Origin: a virus
Lineage: Duplodnaviria; Caudoviricetes
Strand: one strand, 5' to 3'
DNA: 64,000 nt
IMG/VR virus record: IMGVR_UViG_3300008448_000044
Location: 1-64,000 of that record
Position numbers and translations under genes: made by a program. Below are positions 11,505 to 54,603 of the stretch, in pieces; the first letter of the stretch is position 1, and each line of letters opens with the position of its first letter. The notes beneath the pieces are model-generated. The model was given only the letters and a program-made list of their open reading frames with translations, did no database searches and was not told the DNA's origin.

Positions 11505-11639
11505 ATGGAGGAAAAACCAATAACATTTGAACAAAAACTTGAGGGATGGAAAAATCGTATGGCGTTTGCCAGGACTGTTGCTCGAATAATTGCGGTTATA
11601 ATACAGACAGTAATAACATATTTTTTAATAACAAAATGA
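11505..11639 (+). CDS. small membrane protein
   Basis: Short ORF coupled to both neighbours, C-terminal hydrophobic helix. Confidence 0.4.
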   Translation: MEEKPITFEQKLEGWKNRMAFARTVARIIAVIIQTVITYFLITK

Positions 11640-12229
11640 AAGTAATATTTTTAGACCACGATGGAGTAATTTGCCTTTCCAACAATTGGGGTGGACGAAC
11701 AAAAAAATGGTCAAAATACCGTAGTCAAAATCCCGACAGTAGTAAGGAAAAAAAAGAGGCTCCAGTATCTGTTCGTTTTGATGATTTTGATAAGAAAGCT
11801 ATTAAAGTACTCAATGAAATACTTGAAGAAACAGGTGCTGAAATTGTTGTGTCTTCAGATTGGAAACGTTTGTCAAATGTTGAGGAAATGGGTGAGTACT
11901 ATGAATCACAGGGAATTACTAAAAAACCTATAGCGTTTACACCAAATCTAAGTGAATGTACAAATTATGACAACGAAACTTTTCCTTGGTCTCGTCAGTG
12001 GGATTTAGAACAAACTCGTTCACTTGAGATTAAACAATATTTACAAGACCATCCTGAAATTACTCATTGGGTTGCAATTGATGACCTTAACATGGGTAAA
12101 ACAGGAAAATATTACAGTGTTAGTTTTGAACATGAATGGGGATTAGATAATTTTGTTCTAACACCTAAAGGTAATGAAGGGTTAAAACAATCAGGAATTA
12201 AAGGTAAAGTTTTGGAGTTTCTAAAATAA
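11636..12229 (+). CDS. HAD-superfamily hydrolase (Swiss-army-knife RNA-repair HAD type)
   Basis: VIFLDHDGV, IVVSSDW, WVAIDD motifs. Confidence 0.8.
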   Translation: MKVIFLDHDGVICLSNNWGGRTKKWSKYRSQNPDSSKEKKEAPVSVRFDDFDKKAIKVLNEILEETGAEIVVSSDWKRLSNVEEMGEYYESQGITKKPIAFTPNLSECTNYDNETFPWSRQWDLEQTRSLEIKQYLQDHPEITHWVAIDDLNMGKTGKYYSVSFEHEWGLDNFVLTPKGNEGLKQSGIKGKVLEFLK

Positions 12230-36527: not shown

Positions 36528-36599
36528 ATGAAAAATTTAAATATCATACTTTTAGGCGGGACTGAAGCGGATACACGTTTTAGAACGGAGATGGTATGA
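36528..36599 (+). CDS. putative attenuator leader peptide 2 (MKNLNIILLGGTEADTRFRTEMV)
   Basis: 23-codon ORF upstream of terminator; codons match tRNAs of array 2; GGAGATGG complementary to the terminator 5' arm. Confidence 0.78.
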   Translation: MKNLNIILLGGTEADTRFRTEMV

Positions 36600-36622
36600 T
36601 ATGACGTGAAATAAACTGACTG

Positions 36623-36658
36623 AAACCCATCTCCAAAAAAGATGGGTTTTTTCTTTTT
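36623..36658 (+). terminator. attenuator terminator 2
   Basis: AAACCCATCT-ccaaaaa-AGATGGGTTT plus U-tract. Confidence 0.9.
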
Positions 36659-36698
36659 ATACGTTTTGTGAATTGAAATTTTTTTGTAACTTTGTAAT

Positions 36699-36722
36699 GT
36701 TCTTTGACATATTGGTTTGAAA
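36699..36722 (+). promoter_or_regulatory. boxA-like element (preceded by TAACTTTG promoter at 36687-36694)
   Basis: Exact 24-nt repeat of 32259-32282. Confidence 0.7.
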
Positions 36723-36727
36723 AGTAA

Positions 36728-36799
36728 GGTCTATTGGTGTAGTGGCTAACATACATCCCTGTCACGGATGTGCCGCGAGTTCGATTCTCGCATAGACCG
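36728..36799 (+). tRNA. tRNA-Asp(GTC)
   Basis: CATCC-CTGTCAC-GGATG arm; G73. Confidence 0.92.
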
Positions 36800-36805
36800 C
36801 AATAT

Positions 36806-36882
36806 CGCGGGTTATGGAAGTGGTCTATCCGCCAGGTCTCATAAGCCAGGAATCGGGGGTTCGAATCCCTCACCCGCTACCA
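36806..36882 (+). tRNA. tRNA-Met(CAT), initiator-like
   Basis: C1:U72 mismatch, CTCATAA loop, encoded CCA. Confidence 0.8.
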
Positions 36883-36885
36883 AAT

Positions 36886-36964
36886 GGGGGTACATGTACC
36901 AAGGCTTTGGCGATGTCGATTTGCAATCAACGTGAGGTGGGTTCGATTCCCACTATCTCCACCA
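36886..36964 (+). tRNA. tRNA-Ala(TGC)
   Basis: TTTGCAA loop; G3:U70; encoded CCA; atypical D arm. Confidence 0.85.
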
Positions 36965-37563: not shown

Positions 37564-37778
37564 GAATCCTTATGAGATTAGGTTTTAAAACAAAAAGATT
37601 TTTGATTAAAAACAGAGAAAATATCGTATACCTATACATGGGAATAATTTTTTTAATTTTTTTACTTACGGTTTTTTTGTAGTTTAAAAAAAAGTTGTAT
37701 CTTTGTAATGTTGTTAAGGGGGACGGAAGTATTAAAGTGATGGTGTTCCGTCCCCCGAATAAGAGAAAAAGTTCTTTG

Positions 37779-38070
37779 AAAGGTTGTGATTTATTACACT
37801 AAAGCGAGGGGGAAAACTTTAGGTAGTATGTGTTGAACTAGATTGCTCCGACTAGCGTGGGTATACTCACGAAGCATTTAACAATGGAGTAATGATGCTT
37901 ACACATATAAATCCCAACCATTTTTAAAATATTGATAGTGGTCACTCTTACAATGAAAGTCGACAGAGTAGTTGTAAGGTAACATAGTGTCAGCACCCTC
38001 GGCCAGTGCACTGATAAAACTCAGAAGATGCCGTTAAGATTGGAGCGAGATGGGTACTCCAACACTATCA
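37779..38070 (+). ncRNA. two unassigned structured RNAs
   Basis: Helices GGTTG.GATTT/AAATC.CAACC (37782-37919) and TGATAGTG/CACTATCA (37933-38070); follow promoter, hairpin and boxA. Confidence 0.5.
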
Positions 38071-38138
38071 TCTTACTGAATGAACAACGCGACCGCAGGA
38101 GTTGTACCTTTATGGTTTTGTAATGTGGTTTTTTAAAT

Positions 38139-39571: not shown

Positions 39572-39733
39572 ATAAAATGGAAAATAAAGAATGGAATCCA
39601 AATGATTGGCAAGGTAAACGCAAAGACCAAGTTGACTACGCAAGCGCGATAACTTTTATTTCAATTGTTTTTGGAATTGTAGTTGGAATTGTGGTTTGTT
39701 TTTTATATCTTTGTAATGTTATTTGATTGAAAC

Positions 39734-41942: not shown

Positions 41943-42365
41943 ATGGAAAAGAAAAAAATATATTTAGATGACGTAAGAACTCCAATTGTGAGAGATTGGG
42001 TTGTTGTTCGTTCTTACGATGATTTCGTGAATAAAGTTAATGAGATTGGATTGGAAAACATTAGTCTAATATCTTTAGACCACGATTTGGGTGACACTGC
42101 AATGATGGAATGGCATCGTAATGTTTATCATAATTACGAATTAAATTATGATAATATTACCGAAAAAACTGGTATGGATTGTACTAAATGGTTGGTTGAA
42201 CAATGGATGGATGGTAAACCCGTTGTTGATGTTGTTATTCACTCAGCAAATGCGATTGGTAGTGCGAATATGATGGGTTATATTAATAACTACCGACATA
42301 TCCACAGATTACCACAAAACTGTGTGAGAGTTCAATGGGAACATACAATAGAAAATGTTTTTTAA
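41943..42365 (+). CDS. cyclic-phosphate-processing receiver-domain protein
   Basis: IYLDDVR.P, ISLDHDLG, TGMDC, IHSAN..G motifs. Confidence 0.8.
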   Translation: MEKKKIYLDDVRTPIVRDWVVVRSYDDFVNKVNEIGLENISLISLDHDLGDTAMMEWHRNVYHNYELNYDNITEKTGMDCTKWLVEQWMDGKPVVDVVIHSANAIGSANMMGYINNYRHIHRLPQNCVRVQWEHTIENVF

Positions 42366-45986: not shown

Positions 45987-46997
45987 ATGGACAGAAAATT
46001 AACGAGCATACGAAAAATTAGTGATTTATCCCCAATTGAAGGTGCGGATAAAATTGAGTTAGCAACAATTGATGGATGGAAAGTTGTCGTTGCAAAAGAT
46101 GTTAACCATAAGGTTGGTGACTTGGTTGTTTACTGTGAGGTAGATTCTTTTTTACCAATCAGGGAAGAATTTGAATTCTTGAGAAAGAGTTCATATAAAA
46201 AAATGGGAGACCAAGAAGGATTCCGTTTAAAGACAATTAGATTAAGAGGTCAATTATCTCAGGGTTTGATTTTACCAATCCACATTTTACCTTTTGGTGC
46301 GTTCCATGAAGGACAAGATGTTACTGAAGTATTGGGTATTGTTAAATACGAACCACCAGTTCCCGCAGAATTAGCTGGTAAGGTAAAAGGTTTGTTCCCG
46401 TCTTTCATCCGTAAAACTGATGAAGAAAGAGTTCAAAACTTGGCAAAAGAATATCAAGAATACCAAGTGACTTCAAAACATAAGTTTTATGTAACTGAAA
46501 AATTGGATGGTTCTTCATCAACATTTTTCTTAAAAGATGGTGTGTTTGGAGTTTGTTCTCGTAATTTGGAGTTATTGGAAACTGAAGGAAATACTTTCTG
46601 GAAAGTTGCTCGTGAATTGAATTTAGAGAAATTGATGAGCAATGTTGAATTTAATATTTGTTTACAAGGAGAGTTAATTGGTGAAGGAATCCAAGGAAAC
46701 CCTTACAAAATCAAAGGACAAACAGTTAGATTTTTCAACGGATTTAACATCGATACCCAAGAAAACATTTCGTTCTTAGAGTTTGTTGAGTTGGTACAAA
46801 AAATGGGATTAAAAACAGTTCCTATTTTGGATTACGATTTCTTGTTACCTAAAACTATTGATGGTATGTTAGAATATGCGGATAATAAATCCGAGTTGAA
46901 CTCTAACTTTGATAGAGAAGGTGTAGTTGTTAGGTCTTACGATAGAACTGTTAGTTTCAAGGCAATCAGTAATAAATTTTTATTGAACGAAAAATAG
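45987..46997 (+). CDS. RNA ligase, Rnl2/DRB0094-type
   Basis: N-terminal PIEGADKIE..RLRGQLSQG module; motif I EKLDGS, GELIG, EGVV, KAISNKFL. Confidence 0.9.
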   Translation: MDRKLTSIRKISDLSPIEGADKIELATIDGWKVVVAKDVNHKVGDLVVYCEVDSFLPIREEFEFLRKSSYKKMGDQEGFRLKTIRLRGQLSQGLILPIHILPFGAFHEGQDVTEVLGIVKYEPPVPAELAGKVKGLFPSFIRKTDEERVQNLAKEYQEYQVTSKHKFYVTEKLDGSSSTFFLKDGVFGVCSRNLELLETEGNTFWKVARELNLEKLMSNVEFNICLQGELIGEGIQGNPYKIKGQTVRFFNGFNIDTQENISFLEFVELVQKMGLKTVPILDYDFLLPKTIDGMLEYADNKSELNSNFDREGVVVRSYDRTVSFKAISNKFLLNEK

Positions 46998-47012
46998 TTG
47001 TATATTTGCAAC

Positions 47013-48071
47013 ATGTTAGAAGTTTTAGAAAAATATCATAATGAAGGGTTGGTGTACAAACAAGTACACCCAACTCTTCCTTTGACTATATGGAATTATT
47101 CTGAAAAAGTTCAATACGAAGGATTGTGGGATGAAATAACATTACAAGCTAGAGGTTTAGTAACTGATGACAAAGGTAATGTGGTTGCTCGACCATTTAA
47201 AAAATTCTTTAATTTAGAAGAAAAAAAACATACTTCTACTGATGAATTTGAAGTTTTTGAAAAAATGGATGGTTCTTTGGGGATACTTTTTTATTATGGT
47301 GGTGAGTGGGTATTTGCAACAAGAGGGTCATTTACTTCAGACCAATCAATAAAAGGTTCTGATATGTTAAAAAGTTATAAGTATGATAGTTTACATAAAA
47401 ACTACACTTATCTGTTTGAGATAATATATCAAGAAAACAGAATAGTTTGTCAATACGATTTTGAGGATTTGGTTCTATTGGGTATGATAGAAACTAAAAC
47501 AGGTTATGAAGTAAACTTATACGACGAGGGTGAGGATATAAGGTTTAAAAATTTAATATCCAACTTAGGATTTAAAGTTGTACAACGGTTTGATAAATTC
47601 AAAGACTATCAATATTTGAAACAAGCAATACCTGATAATAAAGAAGGTTATGTCGTCAAATTTTCTAATGGAGACCGAATGAAAATAAAAGGTGAAGAAT
47701 ATCTACGTCTCCATAAAATAATGACTAATCTATCTACAACTTCAGTTTGGGAGGTTTTGAGTACTGGCGGAAAAATGGAAAATTTATTAAAAGATGTTCC
47801 TGACGAGTTCTATAAAAAAATAAAAGAGTATGAGAAGAGTTTAAGATATGCTTTTTATCAAGTTTCAGAATATTGTGGTAAATCTCATGATTATTTCCGA
47901 TATGGGAAATATAATGACATAGAAGTTGAGCCTACAAAAAAACAGTTTGCTGAACATGTGATGAAAAATTGTCATCCGCCTTATAGACCTGTAATGTTTG
48001 CAATGTGGGATAGAAAACCATATGACCAAATAATATGGAAAATGTTAAAACCTGAATTTAGAAAACTTTAA
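47013..48071 (+). CDS. RNA ligase, T4 Rnl1-type
   Basis: ARGLV, PFKKFFN, EKMDGS, ATRGSF, FEII, EGYVV, KIK.EEY. Confidence 0.9.
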   Translation: MLEVLEKYHNEGLVYKQVHPTLPLTIWNYSEKVQYEGLWDEITLQARGLVTDDKGNVVARPFKKFFNLEEKKHTSTDEFEVFEKMDGSLGILFYYGGEWVFATRGSFTSDQSIKGSDMLKSYKYDSLHKNYTYLFEIIYQENRIVCQYDFEDLVLLGMIETKTGYEVNLYDEGEDIRFKNLISNLGFKVVQRFDKFKDYQYLKQAIPDNKEGYVVKFSNGDRMKIKGEEYLRLHKIMTNLSTTSVWEVLSTGGKMENLLKDVPDEFYKKIKEYEKSLRYAFYQVSEYCGKSHDYFRYGKYNDIEVEPTKKQFAEHVMKNCHPPYRPVMFAMWDRKPYDQIIWKMLKPEFRKL

Positions 48072-50147: not shown

Positions 50148-50309
50148 TTATTTTGTTTTTACAGTGTCAACTTTAACAGTATCTACCACAACTATTGTGT
50201 CGGTTAATGTACTGTCAGTTGGTTGAGTTTCAGTTTTAGTCTCGTTAGACCCACATGAACTAATCAAAGCTACTGTTGCAATCAAAAATGCTAATGTTAC
50301 TTTTTTCAT
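50148..50309 (-). CDS. 53-aa lipoprotein (missed by ORF track)
   Basis: Manual translation MKKVTLAFLIATVALISSCGSNETKTETQPTDSTLTDTIVVVDTVKVDTVKTK*. Confidence 0.65.
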   Translation of the reverse strand: MKKVTLAFLIATVALISSCGSNETKTETQPTDSTLTDTIVVVDTVKVDTVKTK

Positions 50310-50492
50310 ATTTATATTGTTTTATTTGACCAATAAATAGGTGAAACTTACCGATAAGTCAAGAAAATACCCCTTTATCATAAAATTTTTTTTAAGTTCT
50401 TGACAGACAAAAAAAAGTTAGTATATTTGTAAAACACTTTTGAAAAAAAGTTCTTTGAATTAACCGAGTATTAACTGTTTAAAAACTCAAAC

Positions 50493-50636
50493 ATGAGTAA
50501 CGAAACACAAGTAATTGACGAACCTTTGTTCTACTACTATGGGAATGATGGTGTGAAGTATTACACTTGTAGTGCCGTTCTTGCAATGGCAAGAGCTAAA
50601 TTTCACGGTACTGACGATGTATACGTAGTATCTTAA
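50493..50636 (+). CDS. 47-aa hypothetical protein (missed by ORF track)
   Basis: MSNETQVIDEPLFYYYGNDGVKYYTCSAVLAMARAKFHGTDDVYVVS*; follows promoter and boxA. Confidence 0.5.
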   Translation: MSNETQVIDEPLFYYYGNDGVKYYTCSAVLAMARAKFHGTDDVYVVS

Positions 50637-50934
50637 AAAAAGTTGAAGAAAAATTTGGAAAATTAAAAAGTTCTTCTTAACTTTGTAAAACAAATCGGAA
50701 ATGTCCGATGAGTTCTTTAAAAAAATTGGTTATAGAAACAGTCTAGGTCCGTAGGGCTACTGTTGTATGTGAGGAAAGTGACTACGGGAATCCTTCGCAT
50801 TTAAAGTGTAAATGAGACATGTTACCGCAACAGTTATAATAACCGAAAAAAAAGTTTGAGAAAAATTTGGAAATTAAAAAAATTGTTCTTAACTTTGTAA
50901 AACAAATCGGAAACGTCCGATAGAGTTCTTTGAA
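50635..50934 (+). repeat. duplicated ~88-bp promoter/boxB/boxA module (50635-50722, 50845-50934)
   Basis: Both copies TTTG...TAACTTTGTAAAACAA-ATCGGAAAYGTCCGAT-..GTTCTTT. Confidence 0.85.
50727..50846 (+). ncRNA. small structured RNA between the duplicated promoters
   Basis: Outer helix TTGGTTAT/ATAACCGA; two hairpins with complementary loop segments CCGTAG/CTACGG. Confidence 0.5.
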
Positions 50935-50935
50935 A

Positions 50936-51800
50936 GATTGAATTATCCATCAGGTGAAAGTACCCCTTCGGGGAGATGATAACCTGTAAAAGATAATCGG
51001 CCGTATATGGTCGTTAAATAAACTACGAAAGTAGGATAAAGTGGAATCACCCGTGTTGATGATTCTGCGGTTTGGGAAACCGAACTCGAGTATACAAGTG
51101 GGATATCACCCGACCTTCAGTACTGAGGGCGACGCTTTAGGGAAAGTGGTTGGGTGACCAAGCAATGTGGATTGTTTGGTTGAGGTGGGAACACCAATAA
51201 GAATAACCCATAGGAATCAAGTGAGAGGTGTAGTTATCCAATTACATAATTGCGGGTTCCAATATGAAAGTGGACTTAAAACCGAAAGGTAAGATAGAGA
51301 ACGAGTGGTGTCGCTACTATCCTTATCAAAGACCCACCAAGGTCTTGGTACGAAGTAAACTTGAAATATGGAGGTGGGGACATCTCACGGAGTAGTTTAG
51401 TATTCAGTTGTTCAAAAGATGACTGAGCTTAGGGTAGACCACTACTTCGATACATCCACGACACAAAACTTATGACTAAAAATTAAGTCCTATTAATTAT
51501 GAAATCTAAGGAAAAGTGTCTACCAGGTTTTGGTGAAAGGTGACTACATAGTAATGAGCCGTTCATTGCACACAAAGACCCCAAGTCCGAGTGTAGTTTT
51601 ACCAAAGACCTCTAATCCCGCAAGGATTAATTGGGGAGGCATCCTCGAAGAGAGTTGAGTAATAAGAGAGTAACCAAGACCTCAAGGAGTGGTAAACCTA
51701 AAAGACCGTCACTGAGAAATACTTCTCAAAAGGAAGTGGATAAGAGTAGAAGCAATAATGACTCGAAAGGTTCTCAAATAAAAGGTATAATCTCAGCCTT
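50936..51800 (+). ncRNA. giant structured ncRNA, GOLLD-like
   Basis: ~870 nt, GC-rich, ORF-free, many GNRA/UUCG hairpins; abuts a tRNA; family call from size, context and recollection only. Confidence 0.6.
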
Positions 51801-51808
51801 AGCCATAT

Positions 51809-51880
51809 AGTGGGATAGAGCAGTGGAAGCTCGCAAGGCTCATAACCTTGAGGTCGAAGGTTCGAATCCTTCTCCCGCAA
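51809..51880 (+). tRNA. tRNA-Met(CAT), initiator-like
   Basis: 1:72 mismatch, A11:U24, CAAGG-CTCATAA-CCTTG arm. Confidence 0.88.
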
Positions 51881-52362
51881 CAAGTGACTCCGATAGGTGT
51901 TCTTTAGAATTGTATCACACCTAACATGAGTTTAAACTGAGAACAAAACAGAACAATCAGGGTTTTATTCGTGATGGTTCAGACTCTTTGTCACACATTT
52001 TTACCCTTAAGGAAAAAAGTAAAGGAAATAAGAGCGCCGCTTGAGTCCTCGACATGACTTTGTCTGGCAATAGACAGAAAACTGTACGACACCTTTTTTT
52101 AAGATGTGGATTTCTGTGATAACCACAAAAATTTTAGTAGGTGTTTAAATATGAAAAAATGATAAAAAACATAGACGTTTAAATTGTACAAACTCGACCA
52201 TACGACAATGGTTACTTTTGTCTCACTAACAAAAGTATCGGGTTGGACTTACCGACAGAGAAAGTTCCACGGTTAAAAGGGAGAAATTGACTAACCACCA
52301 ATATTCTCCCTTTTTTTGTTTATAACAGACAACTTTATAGTGAAATATTCGTATTTATAGTA

Positions 52363-52950
52363 ATGAAGGTAACGATTTTCACTATATTATTTTTTCTTTT
52401 ATCATTACCTGTTTTTAGTCAGTGTAATGGGGCTCAAACTTTTACACTAACCCCAACACCACCTGTTGGTGGATATACTCCTGGTACTGTAGTTAACGTA
52501 TGTTATACCATGAATGGGTATACTCAAACGGGGTCCAATTGGATTGAGGGTTTTGATTTAACTTTAGGTCCTGGATGGACAGGATTAACACCCGTATCTC
52601 CACCCGCAAATTGTGGAGGAGCGGTTTCAGGAGGACAATGGATTTGGATGACATCATGTCCTACACCTGTGGGTCCTATAGGTCCTGGATATTTCTTTGA
52701 TTTAACTATTGATGGTAATCCTGCGAATGACTTTGGGGACAATGGTTCATGTGTATGGACTTTTTGTTTTCAAGTAACAGTATCCACTTTATGTACACCA
52801 CAAAATTTATTAATACAAGTTACACCTGGTTCAGATGGGTTATGGGGAAGTTGGAATAGTACTTCGTGTGATTTGGCGACACCATTTAATATTTACAACG
52901 GAACAAGCAACCCTACACCACCAATTGTTGGACCTATAAGTCATAACTAA
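52363..52950 (+). CDS. secreted Cys/Gly/Pro-rich protein
   Basis: Signal peptide ending FSQ; C-terminus PPIVGPISHN. Confidence 0.75.
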   Translation: MKVTIFTILFFLLSLPVFSQCNGAQTFTLTPTPPVGGYTPGTVVNVCYTMNGYTQTGSNWIEGFDLTLGPGWTGLTPVSPPANCGGAVSGGQWIWMTSCPTPVGPIGPGYFFDLTIDGNPANDFGDNGSCVWTFCFQVTVSTLCTPQNLLIQVTPGSDGLWGSWNSTSCDLATPFNIYNGTSNPTPPIVGPISHN

Positions 52951-54131: not shown

Positions 54132-54522
54132 TGGTGGAGGTATTGGGACTCGAACCCAAGTCCTGTTCACATTACCCATTAAGGACTACACGCTTAGGTT
54201 AACATTTTCTAATGTTCCAAAAATAGTTGATTTGTTCTTCACCATCGTAAATCAACAAACAATGGTTACCATTCGATTTAGGGTTCAATAGTAATCCACC
54301 ACAACTACGACTTCTGTTGCAAGGTTATATGTCTGCCGACCCCTTTAGTAACCTAATTCAATTAGGCTACTGCTACGCTTTCCTCAGTACGGATAAGACC
54401 TACCGCAGAAAGTTTGTTGATAACGTTGCCGTTTATCGTTTTTGAACCATTTTGACAGGGTTAGTTCGTCCCTGACGTGCCCCGAATGACTATCTATGCC
54501 AGTCAATTCCAGAGTTACCCCC
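54132..54522 (-). ncRNA. ssrA: tmRNA
   Basis: 5' GGGGGTA..GGAATTGAC, 3' GGTTCGAGTCCC..TACCTCCACCA, G3:U70; tag ORF (A)GNVINKLSAVGLIRTEESVAVA* at 54430-54362. Confidence 0.93.
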
Positions 54523-54603
54523 ATATGTTAAAGAACTTTTGTTTTACAAATATACGAATAAAAAGATTAATACCAAATCTTTCGTGTATTTATTTGTATA
54601 AAT

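Follow-up and report, generated by a model that had tools for sequence, protein, structure and literature searches.

Introduction

GOLLD is a large phage-borne RNA, reportedly first described in 2009, for which we know of no function found since that description. Here, a GOLLD gene and the leader sequences ahead of it were analyzed in a 64,000-nucleotide (nt) stretch of viral DNA (positions 1 to 64,000 of IMG/VR record IMGVR_UViG_3300008448_000044; this whole stretch is referred to as the window). According to 10.1101/2024.12.08.627333, GOLLD assembles into a 14-mer cage that was solved by electron cryomicroscopy (cryo-EM), the cryo-EM GOLLD is described as downstream of a Met-tRNA, and the env-38 GOLLD measures 833 nt, which compares with 873 nt here. 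For ROOL, another large phage RNA, PMC12286853 reports an abundance equal to that of 16S rRNA in one strain.

The antitermination leaders of ribosomal RNA operons (rrn) are composed of boxB, boxA and boxC and work with NusB, NusE, NusG, NusA, SuhB and S4. In phage lambda, a boxA and a hairpin (boxB) in the nascent RNA of the nut site are used together with the N protein to modify the host polymerase, and the order in nut is boxA, then boxB. An arrangement with boxA in both the leader and the spacer is described for E. coli, and a chaperone role is proposed for the rrn complex, in PMC10250234.

GOLLD itself and the use of boxA by a phage (from lambda) were thus already known. No literature was found that links GOLLD RNA with boxA or antitermination (the supplementary alignments of the GOLLD papers were outside the search), and an rrn-type leader before GOLLD, phage transfer-messenger RNA (tmRNA) and tRNA genes, along with a linked small protein gene, was likewise not found in the literature. 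No published account of how GOLLD is transcribed was found, and the word “upstream” is absent from the Nature paper on GOLLD; in the accessible portions of the literature found, no protein partner of GOLLD is named. New in this study are a gene for a 46-58-amino-acid (aa) protein of no known family, a conserved 125-nt RNA element and a conserved non-coding tail.

Organization of the GOLLD locus

The locus is probably an array, ca. 1.9 kb in length, of co-oriented stable-RNA genes in which each leader copies the rrn leader of a Flavobacteriales host. Its order is as follows: promoter P1, boxA and a 47-aa open reading frame (ORF); promoter P2, hairpin, boxA and a 125-nt RNA; promoter P3, hairpin, boxA, GOLLD (873 nt) and tRNA-Met; a tail of about 400 nt; and a terminator. 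The features are listed below.

50400..50429, + strand: promoter P1 (TTGACA, 16 nt, TATATT, ending TATATTTG; Bacteroidota -7 type)
50450..50460, + strand: boxA-like GTTCTTTGAAT, 20 nt past P1, without a hairpin
50493..50636, + strand: conserved 47-aa ORF, acidic, predicted beta-beta-alpha-beta; family members in other GOLLD loci
50635..50728, + strand: repeat copy 1 (P2 at 50655-50685, hairpin at 50694-50709, boxA-like GTTCTTTAAAA at 50712-50722)
50722..50846, + strand: 125-nt RNA-like element holding GAAAGTGACTA (blastn and consensus fold)
50847..50940, + strand: repeat copy 2 (P3 at 50867-50897, hairpin at 50906-50921, boxA-like GTTCTTTGAAA at 50925-50935)
50936..51387, + strand: putative GOLLD 5' domain (blastn matches in other loci)
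51388..51799, + strand: GOLLD 3' domain (Rfam RF02032, all of model positions 1-416)
51809..51881, + strand: tRNA-Met (CAU) (Rfam and ARAGORN)
51882..52278, + strand: ORF-poor conserved tail (two conserved blocks in 11 loci)
52279..52317, + strand: intrinsic terminator, GGGAGAA ... TTCTCCC followed by 7 T (read from the sequence; conserved stem)

All three tandem promoters of the initial annotation were recovered; with P1 heading the 47-aa ORF and P2 the 125-nt element, they are more than redundant copies. Between P1 and the terminator at 52279-52317, a terminator scan flagged only the leader hairpins and one weak site inside the 125-nt element. Because nothing else was flagged in this interval, the upstream promoters can read through and act as tandem promoters for GOLLD. 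Six RNA-seq runs from six studies contained near-identical sequence (36-60% of the sampled words of 50380-52330), which lends weak support to expression, as such RNA runs may hold DNA.

Identity of the large RNA

On sequence comparison, the ORF-poor stretch is a bona fide GOLLD RNA, and the term “GOLLD-like” of the initial annotation is too weak. The model RF02032, which covers the conserved GOLLD 3' domain, was matched over its full length at 312.9 bits (cut-off 150; E = 1e-88). The 452 nt preceding this match had blastn matches in 107 other fetched loci and are taken as the probable GOLLD 5' domain. The whole stretch (50936-51808) was described beforehand as ca. 870 nt, free of ORFs and rich in hairpins; it measures 873 nt, with the longest ORFs on the + strand at 38-59 aa, and it folds with z = -4.4 (0/20 shuffles fold as well). 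It ends 1 nt before tRNA-Met, and the RF02032 match ends 9 nt before the same tRNA. The model score, a large and less conserved 5' domain, and a phage context near tRNA genes all speak for membership in the family. With known GOLLD RNAs the window's copy shares the full-length 3'-domain match, the large 5' domain, carriage by a phage and an adjoining tRNA-Met, and no difference was found that bears on membership; the leader, small ORF, 125-nt element and tail are additions around the gene.

A search of 50300-52400 against Rfam at E up to 1 returned only GOLLD and tRNA. The models for ROOL and for group I and group II introns, for which a check had been advised at the outset along with GOLLD, gave no match in this range. 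Like ROOL, which forms cages, the RNA of the window is a large phage RNA near tRNA islands; unlike ROOL, it has an unrelated sequence.

Leader signals in the window

Three Bacteroidota-type promoters (TTG / TAnnTTTG) were found, each ahead of GTTCTTT(G/A)A, and two of them are also followed by a 6-base-pair (bp) hairpin. P1 agrees with sigma-70 promoters at 11 of 12 positions and contains the TAnnTTTG motif. The sequence TANNTTTGTAAAAC occurs exactly at 50422, 50678 and 50890 (+ strand) and at 54541 (- strand); with at most one mismatch it is found nine times in the window, compared with 3.1 expected, a count reached by 0/100 shuffles. The two direct repeats, previously estimated at ca. 88 bp, are located at 50635-50728 and 50847-50940 with a spacing of 212 nt and are 83% identical in an ungapped alignment, and each has the promoter motif (at 50678 and 50890). 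The hairpins ATCGGA-AATG-TCCGAT (50694-50709) and ATCGGA-AACG-TCCGAT (50906-50921) and the copies of GTTCTTTRAA behind them (50712 and 50925) are present as had been annotated, and so is the third promoter with its boxA (50422-50460), in which GTTCTTTRAA begins at 50450. A fourth copy is at 37771. The number of copies of GTTCTTTRAA in the window is not significant (4 versus 1.33 expected; 9/100 shuffles reach 4); its significance rests on position and conservation.

Both hairpins with their GTTCTTT tails were flagged by the terminator scan. This result would be expected if the hairpin and the T-rich motif constituted a leader attenuator or pause site that limits transcription. However, the stems are of 5-6 bp, the T run is interrupted and starts 1-4 nt from the stem, the hairpin is replaced or absent in many loci in which the motif (including its G and GAAA) is invariant, and the same layout is found in host rrn leaders. 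An attenuator is thus considered highly improbable. As a candidate intrinsic terminator, for which a stable GC-rich stem with an uninterrupted U run right behind it is expected, the leader hairpin was rejected; its 6-bp stem has 3 GC pairs and is followed by GAGTTCTTTA or AGAGTTCTTT.

Leader conservation in other GOLLD loci

What is said here about the leader applies to the GOLLD subfamily of freshwater Bacteroidota phages (other phyla were outside the comparison). A first set of 64 GOLLD loci was fetched from IMG/VR by means of a GOLLD 3' motif; three were too short upstream. Of the 61 loci that offer 600 nt or more of upstream sequence, 60 have GTTCTTT[AG]A at a distance of 568-664 nt upstream of the GOLLD 3' motif; the exception is L038, in which GTTCTTT[AG]A is present only at -965. 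As in the window, two to four copies of the motif occur in 17 loci of this set. A second set was picked independently by a different GOLLD motif and comprised 41 new loci, 38 of which were confirmed as GOLLD by an nhmmer model; L263, L266 and L272 (GC 0.57-0.58) were not GOLLD by nhmmer and were dropped as chance pattern matches. Upstream sequence of 1000 nt or more was available for 31 loci of the second set; 25 of these have the exact motif, and L250 and L255 have near variants.

The printed flanks share a layout: TTG(ACA/GNA) at -33, TAACTTTGTAAAAC, a hairpin, the invariant GTTCTTTGAAA and a variable GOLLD 5' start. The motif is constant while the flanks on both of its sides vary. In L030 (a row standing for two loci), a 74-nt stretch from promoter to boxA is nearly identical to the P1 stretch of the window. 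A 634-kb uncultured phage (LR745206.1) has a GOLLD at 287 bits that is preceded by the hairpin GTTACTC-AACG-GAGTAAC and GTTCTTTGAAA, and in the same phage a promoter, a hairpin and GTTCTTTGAA are also located ahead of a tRNA.

The hairpin was examined in an alignment (A1) of 31 distinct short-hairpin leaders. In total, 93% of the cells are paired, and both-sided changes occur in 5 of the 6 pairs; the covariation score was reached by 0/500 shuffles, and slid controls were 18-46% paired. A lack of covariation among homologues had been named in the initial annotation as a reason to abandon its reading, and the leader hairpin does covary. Elsewhere the short hairpin is missing, or its place is taken by unrelated stem-loops of greater length or by the 125-nt element. 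The structure and the place of the hairpin are conserved and its sequence is not.

Several side observations were made in these loci. In a divergent GOLLD subfamily (L236, L242, L244 and L252), both the boxA motif and the small ORF are missing, and a tRNA-like T-arm is located upstream of GOLLD in L236 and L252. The GOLLD of LR745206.1 is flanked by near-identical tRNA-like sequences with an extra insert (L002, 1152-1250 and 2349-2447), for which there was no Rfam call at gathering score.

Comparison with host rRNA operons

Nine rrn loci of five Bacteroidota genomes were reached through DnaK loci. A boxA-like regular expression was matched upstream of 16S in 8 of the 9, and L148 reads GTTCTTTGAT by eye. 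In several of these 16S leaders, TAnnTTTG promoters are arranged in tandem, and behind each one stand a short hairpin and GTTCTTT(A/G)A. A larger sample was composed of 81 genomes from the order of genome G001 (with G001 among them); a 16S match was obtained in 42 of them, and 30 loci were retained. The exact motif was present in the 16S-23S spacer of 11/30 loci on the sense strand and of none on the antisense strand. NusB and NusG are encoded in 4/4 host-clade genomes examined.

The phage motif therefore has the attributes of an rrn-type boxA: its sequence is that of the host-clade rrn leader and spacer on the sense strand, it is proximal to the promoter, and a hairpin is located 5' of it. 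The same data bear on an alternative in which GTTCTTTGAAA would act as DNA, as the operator of a transcription factor (from phage or host) that controls stable RNA promoters. Its closeness to promoters would suit such a role; set against this are its restriction to the sense strand, including in 16S-23S spacers far from promoters, a spacing from the -7 box that ranges from 4 to 66 nt, and the covariation of the neighboring hairpin at the RNA level. We therefore regard an operator as very unlikely.

Leaders of other stable RNA genes in the phage

The window contains 29 matches to TTG-N18-21-TAnnTTTG. The motif or a one-base variant follows 7 of these 29 promoter-like sites, and 6 of the 7 head tmRNA, tRNA, GOLLD or ORF-poor stretches. 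The leader element thus marks the stable RNA genes of the phage, with P1 as the one exception. At the other 22 sites, no motif was found in the 50 nt that follow, and several of them run straight into an ATG-led ORF. The leaders outside of the GOLLD locus are these:

54527..54576, - strand: tmRNA promoter (54576..54547) and GTTCTTTAAC leader, ending 4 nt before tmRNA 54522..54132
36666..36708, + strand: promoter (36666-36694) and GTTCTTTGAC leader, before tRNA-Asp and ending 19 nt before it
37677..37781, + strand: promoter (37677-37705), 10-bp hairpin GGGGACGGAA / TTCCGTCCCC, and GTTCTTTGAAA
39683..39727, + strand: promoter (39683-39713) and variant GTTATTTGAT leader, before tRNA-Leu

Rfam and ARAGORN agree on the tmRNA at 54522..54132. 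An additional ARAGORN tmRNA call at 36587-36964 overlaps tRNA-Asp and tRNA-Met, has no Rfam match and is probably false. The sequence at 37782-38138, after the GTTCTTTGAAA leader and upstream of tRNA-Glu, is poor in ORFs (+ strand ORFs of at most 35 aa) and may be another non-coding RNA.

Ahead of the tRNA and tmRNA genes, the motif begins 4-10 nt past the -7 box, and 4-19 nt separate its end from the mature RNA. The hairpin and GUUCUUUGAAA could accordingly be signals for the maturation or stability of stable RNAs, i.e. an RNase site or a 5' protective stem-loop that functions without Nus factors. In keeping with that idea, the gap between the motif and the RNA is 4 nt at the tmRNA 5' end and 19 nt at tRNA-Asp, the hairpin begins about 9 nt past the -7 box, near the expected 5' end, and no boxC was found (the sequence after the motif is variable and the 3' loop is invariant). 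On the other side, the motif is invariant even though its distance to the mature RNA extends from 4 nt to more than 60 nt, and its presence in both leader and spacer of rrn operons, confined to the sense strand, corresponds to the classical arrangement of boxA (PMC10250234). A maturation signal of this kind is judged unlikely.

Weighing the antitermination reading

The reading of the leaders as rrn-like promoter/boxB/boxA units, which the initial annotation had put forward, is well supported by comparison, because the motif is invariant in GOLLD loci, the hairpin covaries, the same layout occurs in Flavobacteriales rrn, and the motif precedes tmRNA and tRNA genes. With rrn antitermination leaders, the phage leaders share tandem promoters, the order of hairpin and then boxA, a boxA identical to that of Flavobacteriales 16S leaders and spacers, and use for a long, untranslated, structured RNA. 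They differ in that they drive GOLLD, tRNA, tmRNA and one small ORF rather than rRNA, and in that no boxC or leader-trailer helix was found.

Seven points weigh against this reading. First, among the 25 loci of the order sample with at least 250 nt upstream (5/30 were left out for short flanks), only 11 carry the exact motif in the 400 nt ahead of 16S; the remaining 14/25 have, by eye, close variants at the same place (GTTCATTGA, GATCATTGA, GCACATTGA, GTTCTTTGC or GTTCGTTTGA). Second, three host-clade chromosomes show no overall enrichment of the 11-mer (25, 16 and 23 copies versus 18, 17 and 22 for the reversed control). In the same chromosomes, each of the five 16S genes has the 11-mer 83-210 nt upstream; there is thus no genome-wide excess but a copy before every 16S, and the specificity rests on position only. 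Third, no Nus gene was detected in the 77-kb phage fragment, which is 26% of the genome according to CheckV. Fourth, four divergent GOLLDs of the second set (59-73 bits, nhmmer) do not have the motif. Fifth, no boxC or leader-trailer pairing was found in a comparison in which the GOLLD 3' terminal loop, taken as the possible partner of the post-boxA sequence, was invariant and the leader variable. Sixth, P1 is the sole motif-bearing site of the 29 that heads a protein gene (the 47-aa ORF). Finally, a role in processing or at the 5' end would be equally compatible with the spacing of the motif ahead of the tRNA and tmRNA genes. Strand specificity, copies in the spacer, covariation of the hairpin and an 11-mer that is invariant as a whole are all explained less well by the attenuator, the operator and the maturation signal than by an rrn-type antitermination leader.

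As in the nut system of lambda, a phage would here be employing boxA and a hairpin in nascent RNA to modify the host polymerase. Unlike nut, the phage order is hairpin and then boxA, i.e. the rrn order, and the structure of the hairpin is kept instead of its sequence. A lambda N / nut system was rejected as a candidate: the hairpin is before boxA, and no N-like arginine-rich protein was found in a Pfam scan of 84 ORFs. In contrast to N, the small ORF beside GOLLD encodes an acidic protein.

The small conserved protein gene

A family of 46-58-aa proteins is encoded just upstream of GOLLD in most of the loci compared. Using a profile of homologues, the small ORF was identified in 47/66 GOLLD loci, or in 47/60 when only loci with 900 nt or more of upstream sequence are counted; in every case it has the orientation of GOLLD and is located a short way ahead of the GOLLD promoter. 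It was also present in 26/31 loci of the second, independently chosen GOLLD set. A reverse search with a degenerate DNA pattern for the C-terminus of the small protein yielded 59 IMG/VR loci; in 37 of the 38 new loci with at least 770 nt downstream, GOLLD is situated 541-1272 nt after the stop codon on the same strand (L188 is the exception). The commonest other flanking protein family within 3 kb is found in only 23/65 GOLLD-selected loci. These linkage counts are rough, as many loci are near-duplicates and some flanks are cut. In L217, two inverted modules of small ORF and GOLLD are equidistant from the contig ends, which may be an inverted repeat or an assembly artefact.

The small ORF is coding, since 26 distinct proteins (alignment A2; 26-72% identical to that of the window) have invariant residues (M1, Y15, G20, T25 and A31) and no frame breaks. 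The protein has no Pfam family, and a search of PHROGs gave one member at E = 0.0087 and no family match. In a large database there are 187 clusters for it, the displayed names of which are “hypothetical protein” save for one “histidyl-tRNA synthetase”. The 47-aa protein was modeled with AlphaFold2 as beta-beta-alpha-beta (mean pLDDT 79.7). A Foldseek search of this model against the PDB gave no significant match (best E = 1.2), and the best score in the ESM Atlas, 0.80, was below lead level. By manual count on alignment A2 the protein is acidic, which argues against direct RNA binding and a role like that of lambda N.

The 125-nt element, tRNA-Met and the tail

The 125-nt element (50722-50846) has blastn matches in nine other GOLLD loci and no Rfam match (E up to 1). 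In its consensus fold, 9 of 35 predicted pairs are compensatory among six sequences. It contains GAAAGTGACTA, and with this one exception GOLLD's GAAAGGTGACTA (the GAAAG(G)TGACTA motif) is confined to GOLLD within the window.

The RNA had been described as ending next to an initiator-like tRNA. A tRNA-Met(CAU) does adjoin it; the designation “initiator” is not settled, as ARAGORN draws the tRNA at 51809-51881 with an unpaired 1:72 (A/A), and a second CAU tRNA (36806-36882) starts with CGCGGG and has C1/T72 unpaired. We take the second to be closer to the classical initiator. A tRNA-Met(CAU) is directly 3' of GOLLD in 19/63 loci and 5' of it in L025 and L036; every tRNA found beside GOLLD (L003-L066) is a tRNA-Met(CAU), and a tRNA just 5' of GOLLD in L002 has, by eye, a CAT anticodon. 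In loci without a 3' tRNA (e.g. L020, L010 and L050), the last GOLLD hairpin (loop GTAATCTCA) is directly followed by a T run, and GOLLD's own 3' hairpin may serve as the terminator there.

The tail after tRNA-Met (about 400 nt) has two blocks that are conserved in 11 loci (blastn; alignment A4). The two longest ORFs on its + strand have 33 aa (51823-51924) and 30 aa (52184-52276), and the terminator stem at 52279-52317 is kept with compensatory changes in six loci. The region 51882-52317 may be a further non-coding RNA.

Phage and host

The 77-kb IMG/VR virus record to which the window belongs has a CheckV completeness estimate of 26%. The window contains 28 tRNA genes, a tmRNA, DnaK, ClpB and RNA ligases, on the basis of which the record is a fragment of a giant (jumbo) phage. 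The phage is of freshwater origin. The host very probably belongs to the Bacteroidota because of the TTG / TAnnTTTG promoters, a CHU_C domain on one window ORF (Pfam scan, 84 ORFs; presumably a type IX secretion signal of Bacteroidota) and the identity of the phage DnaK (66-76%) to genomes labeled mostly Flavobacteriales, Cryomorphaceae, Parapedobacter and Hymenobacter. Probably, it is a Flavobacteriales bacterium; the assignment is at the clade level and derives from the CHU_C domain and DnaK identity. A gene set resembling RNA repair is located beside the tRNA array (2170-2709, 11546-12229, 41943-42365 and 45987-48071), the ORFs of which are Acb1-like / 2'-5' RNA ligase-like (below the Pfam cut-off), HAD_SAK_2, cREC_REC and two RNA ligases.

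Proposed mechanism and significance

From the comparisons above, we infer Nus binding, antitermination and high output at these leaders. The phage would have copied the host rrn leader, i.e. a strong Bacteroidota promoter, a 5' hairpin and the boxA GUUCUUU(G/A)AA, ahead of its own stable RNA genes. Host NusB-S10 would bind the nascent boxA RNA and, with NusG and NusA and possibly SuhB, convert RNA polymerase to an rrn-type antitermination complex. The untranslated 0.9-kb GOLLD and the tRNA could then be made fast and without Rho-dependent termination. The complex may also help GOLLD to fold as the RNA emerges; the chaperone role mentioned above could matter because GOLLD needs both to fold and to form a 14-mer cage. 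Protection of the 5' end may be a further contribution of the 5' hairpin.

Tentatively, one may go further and picture GOLLD as the product of a dedicated module that depends on the antitermination/chaperone machinery of host rRNA. In such a module, boxA would tether the nascent 5' end to the polymerase during folding and cage assembly, the 46-58-aa protein would be the first GOLLD-specific partner or regulator, and the 125-nt RNA (GAAAG(G)UGACUA) would be a further component. This more elaborate picture is a possibility to which we attach modest weight.

The linked small protein is a candidate partner of GOLLD. The boxA variant could serve as a host-prediction signal for uncultured phages. 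The pattern is wider than GOLLD, as the tmRNA of the phage and at least three of its tRNA-region promoters are handled in the same way. An rrn boxA leader on the GOLLD genes of freshwater Bacteroidota phages would offer a concrete route by which GOLLD is made, and perhaps folded, in the cell.

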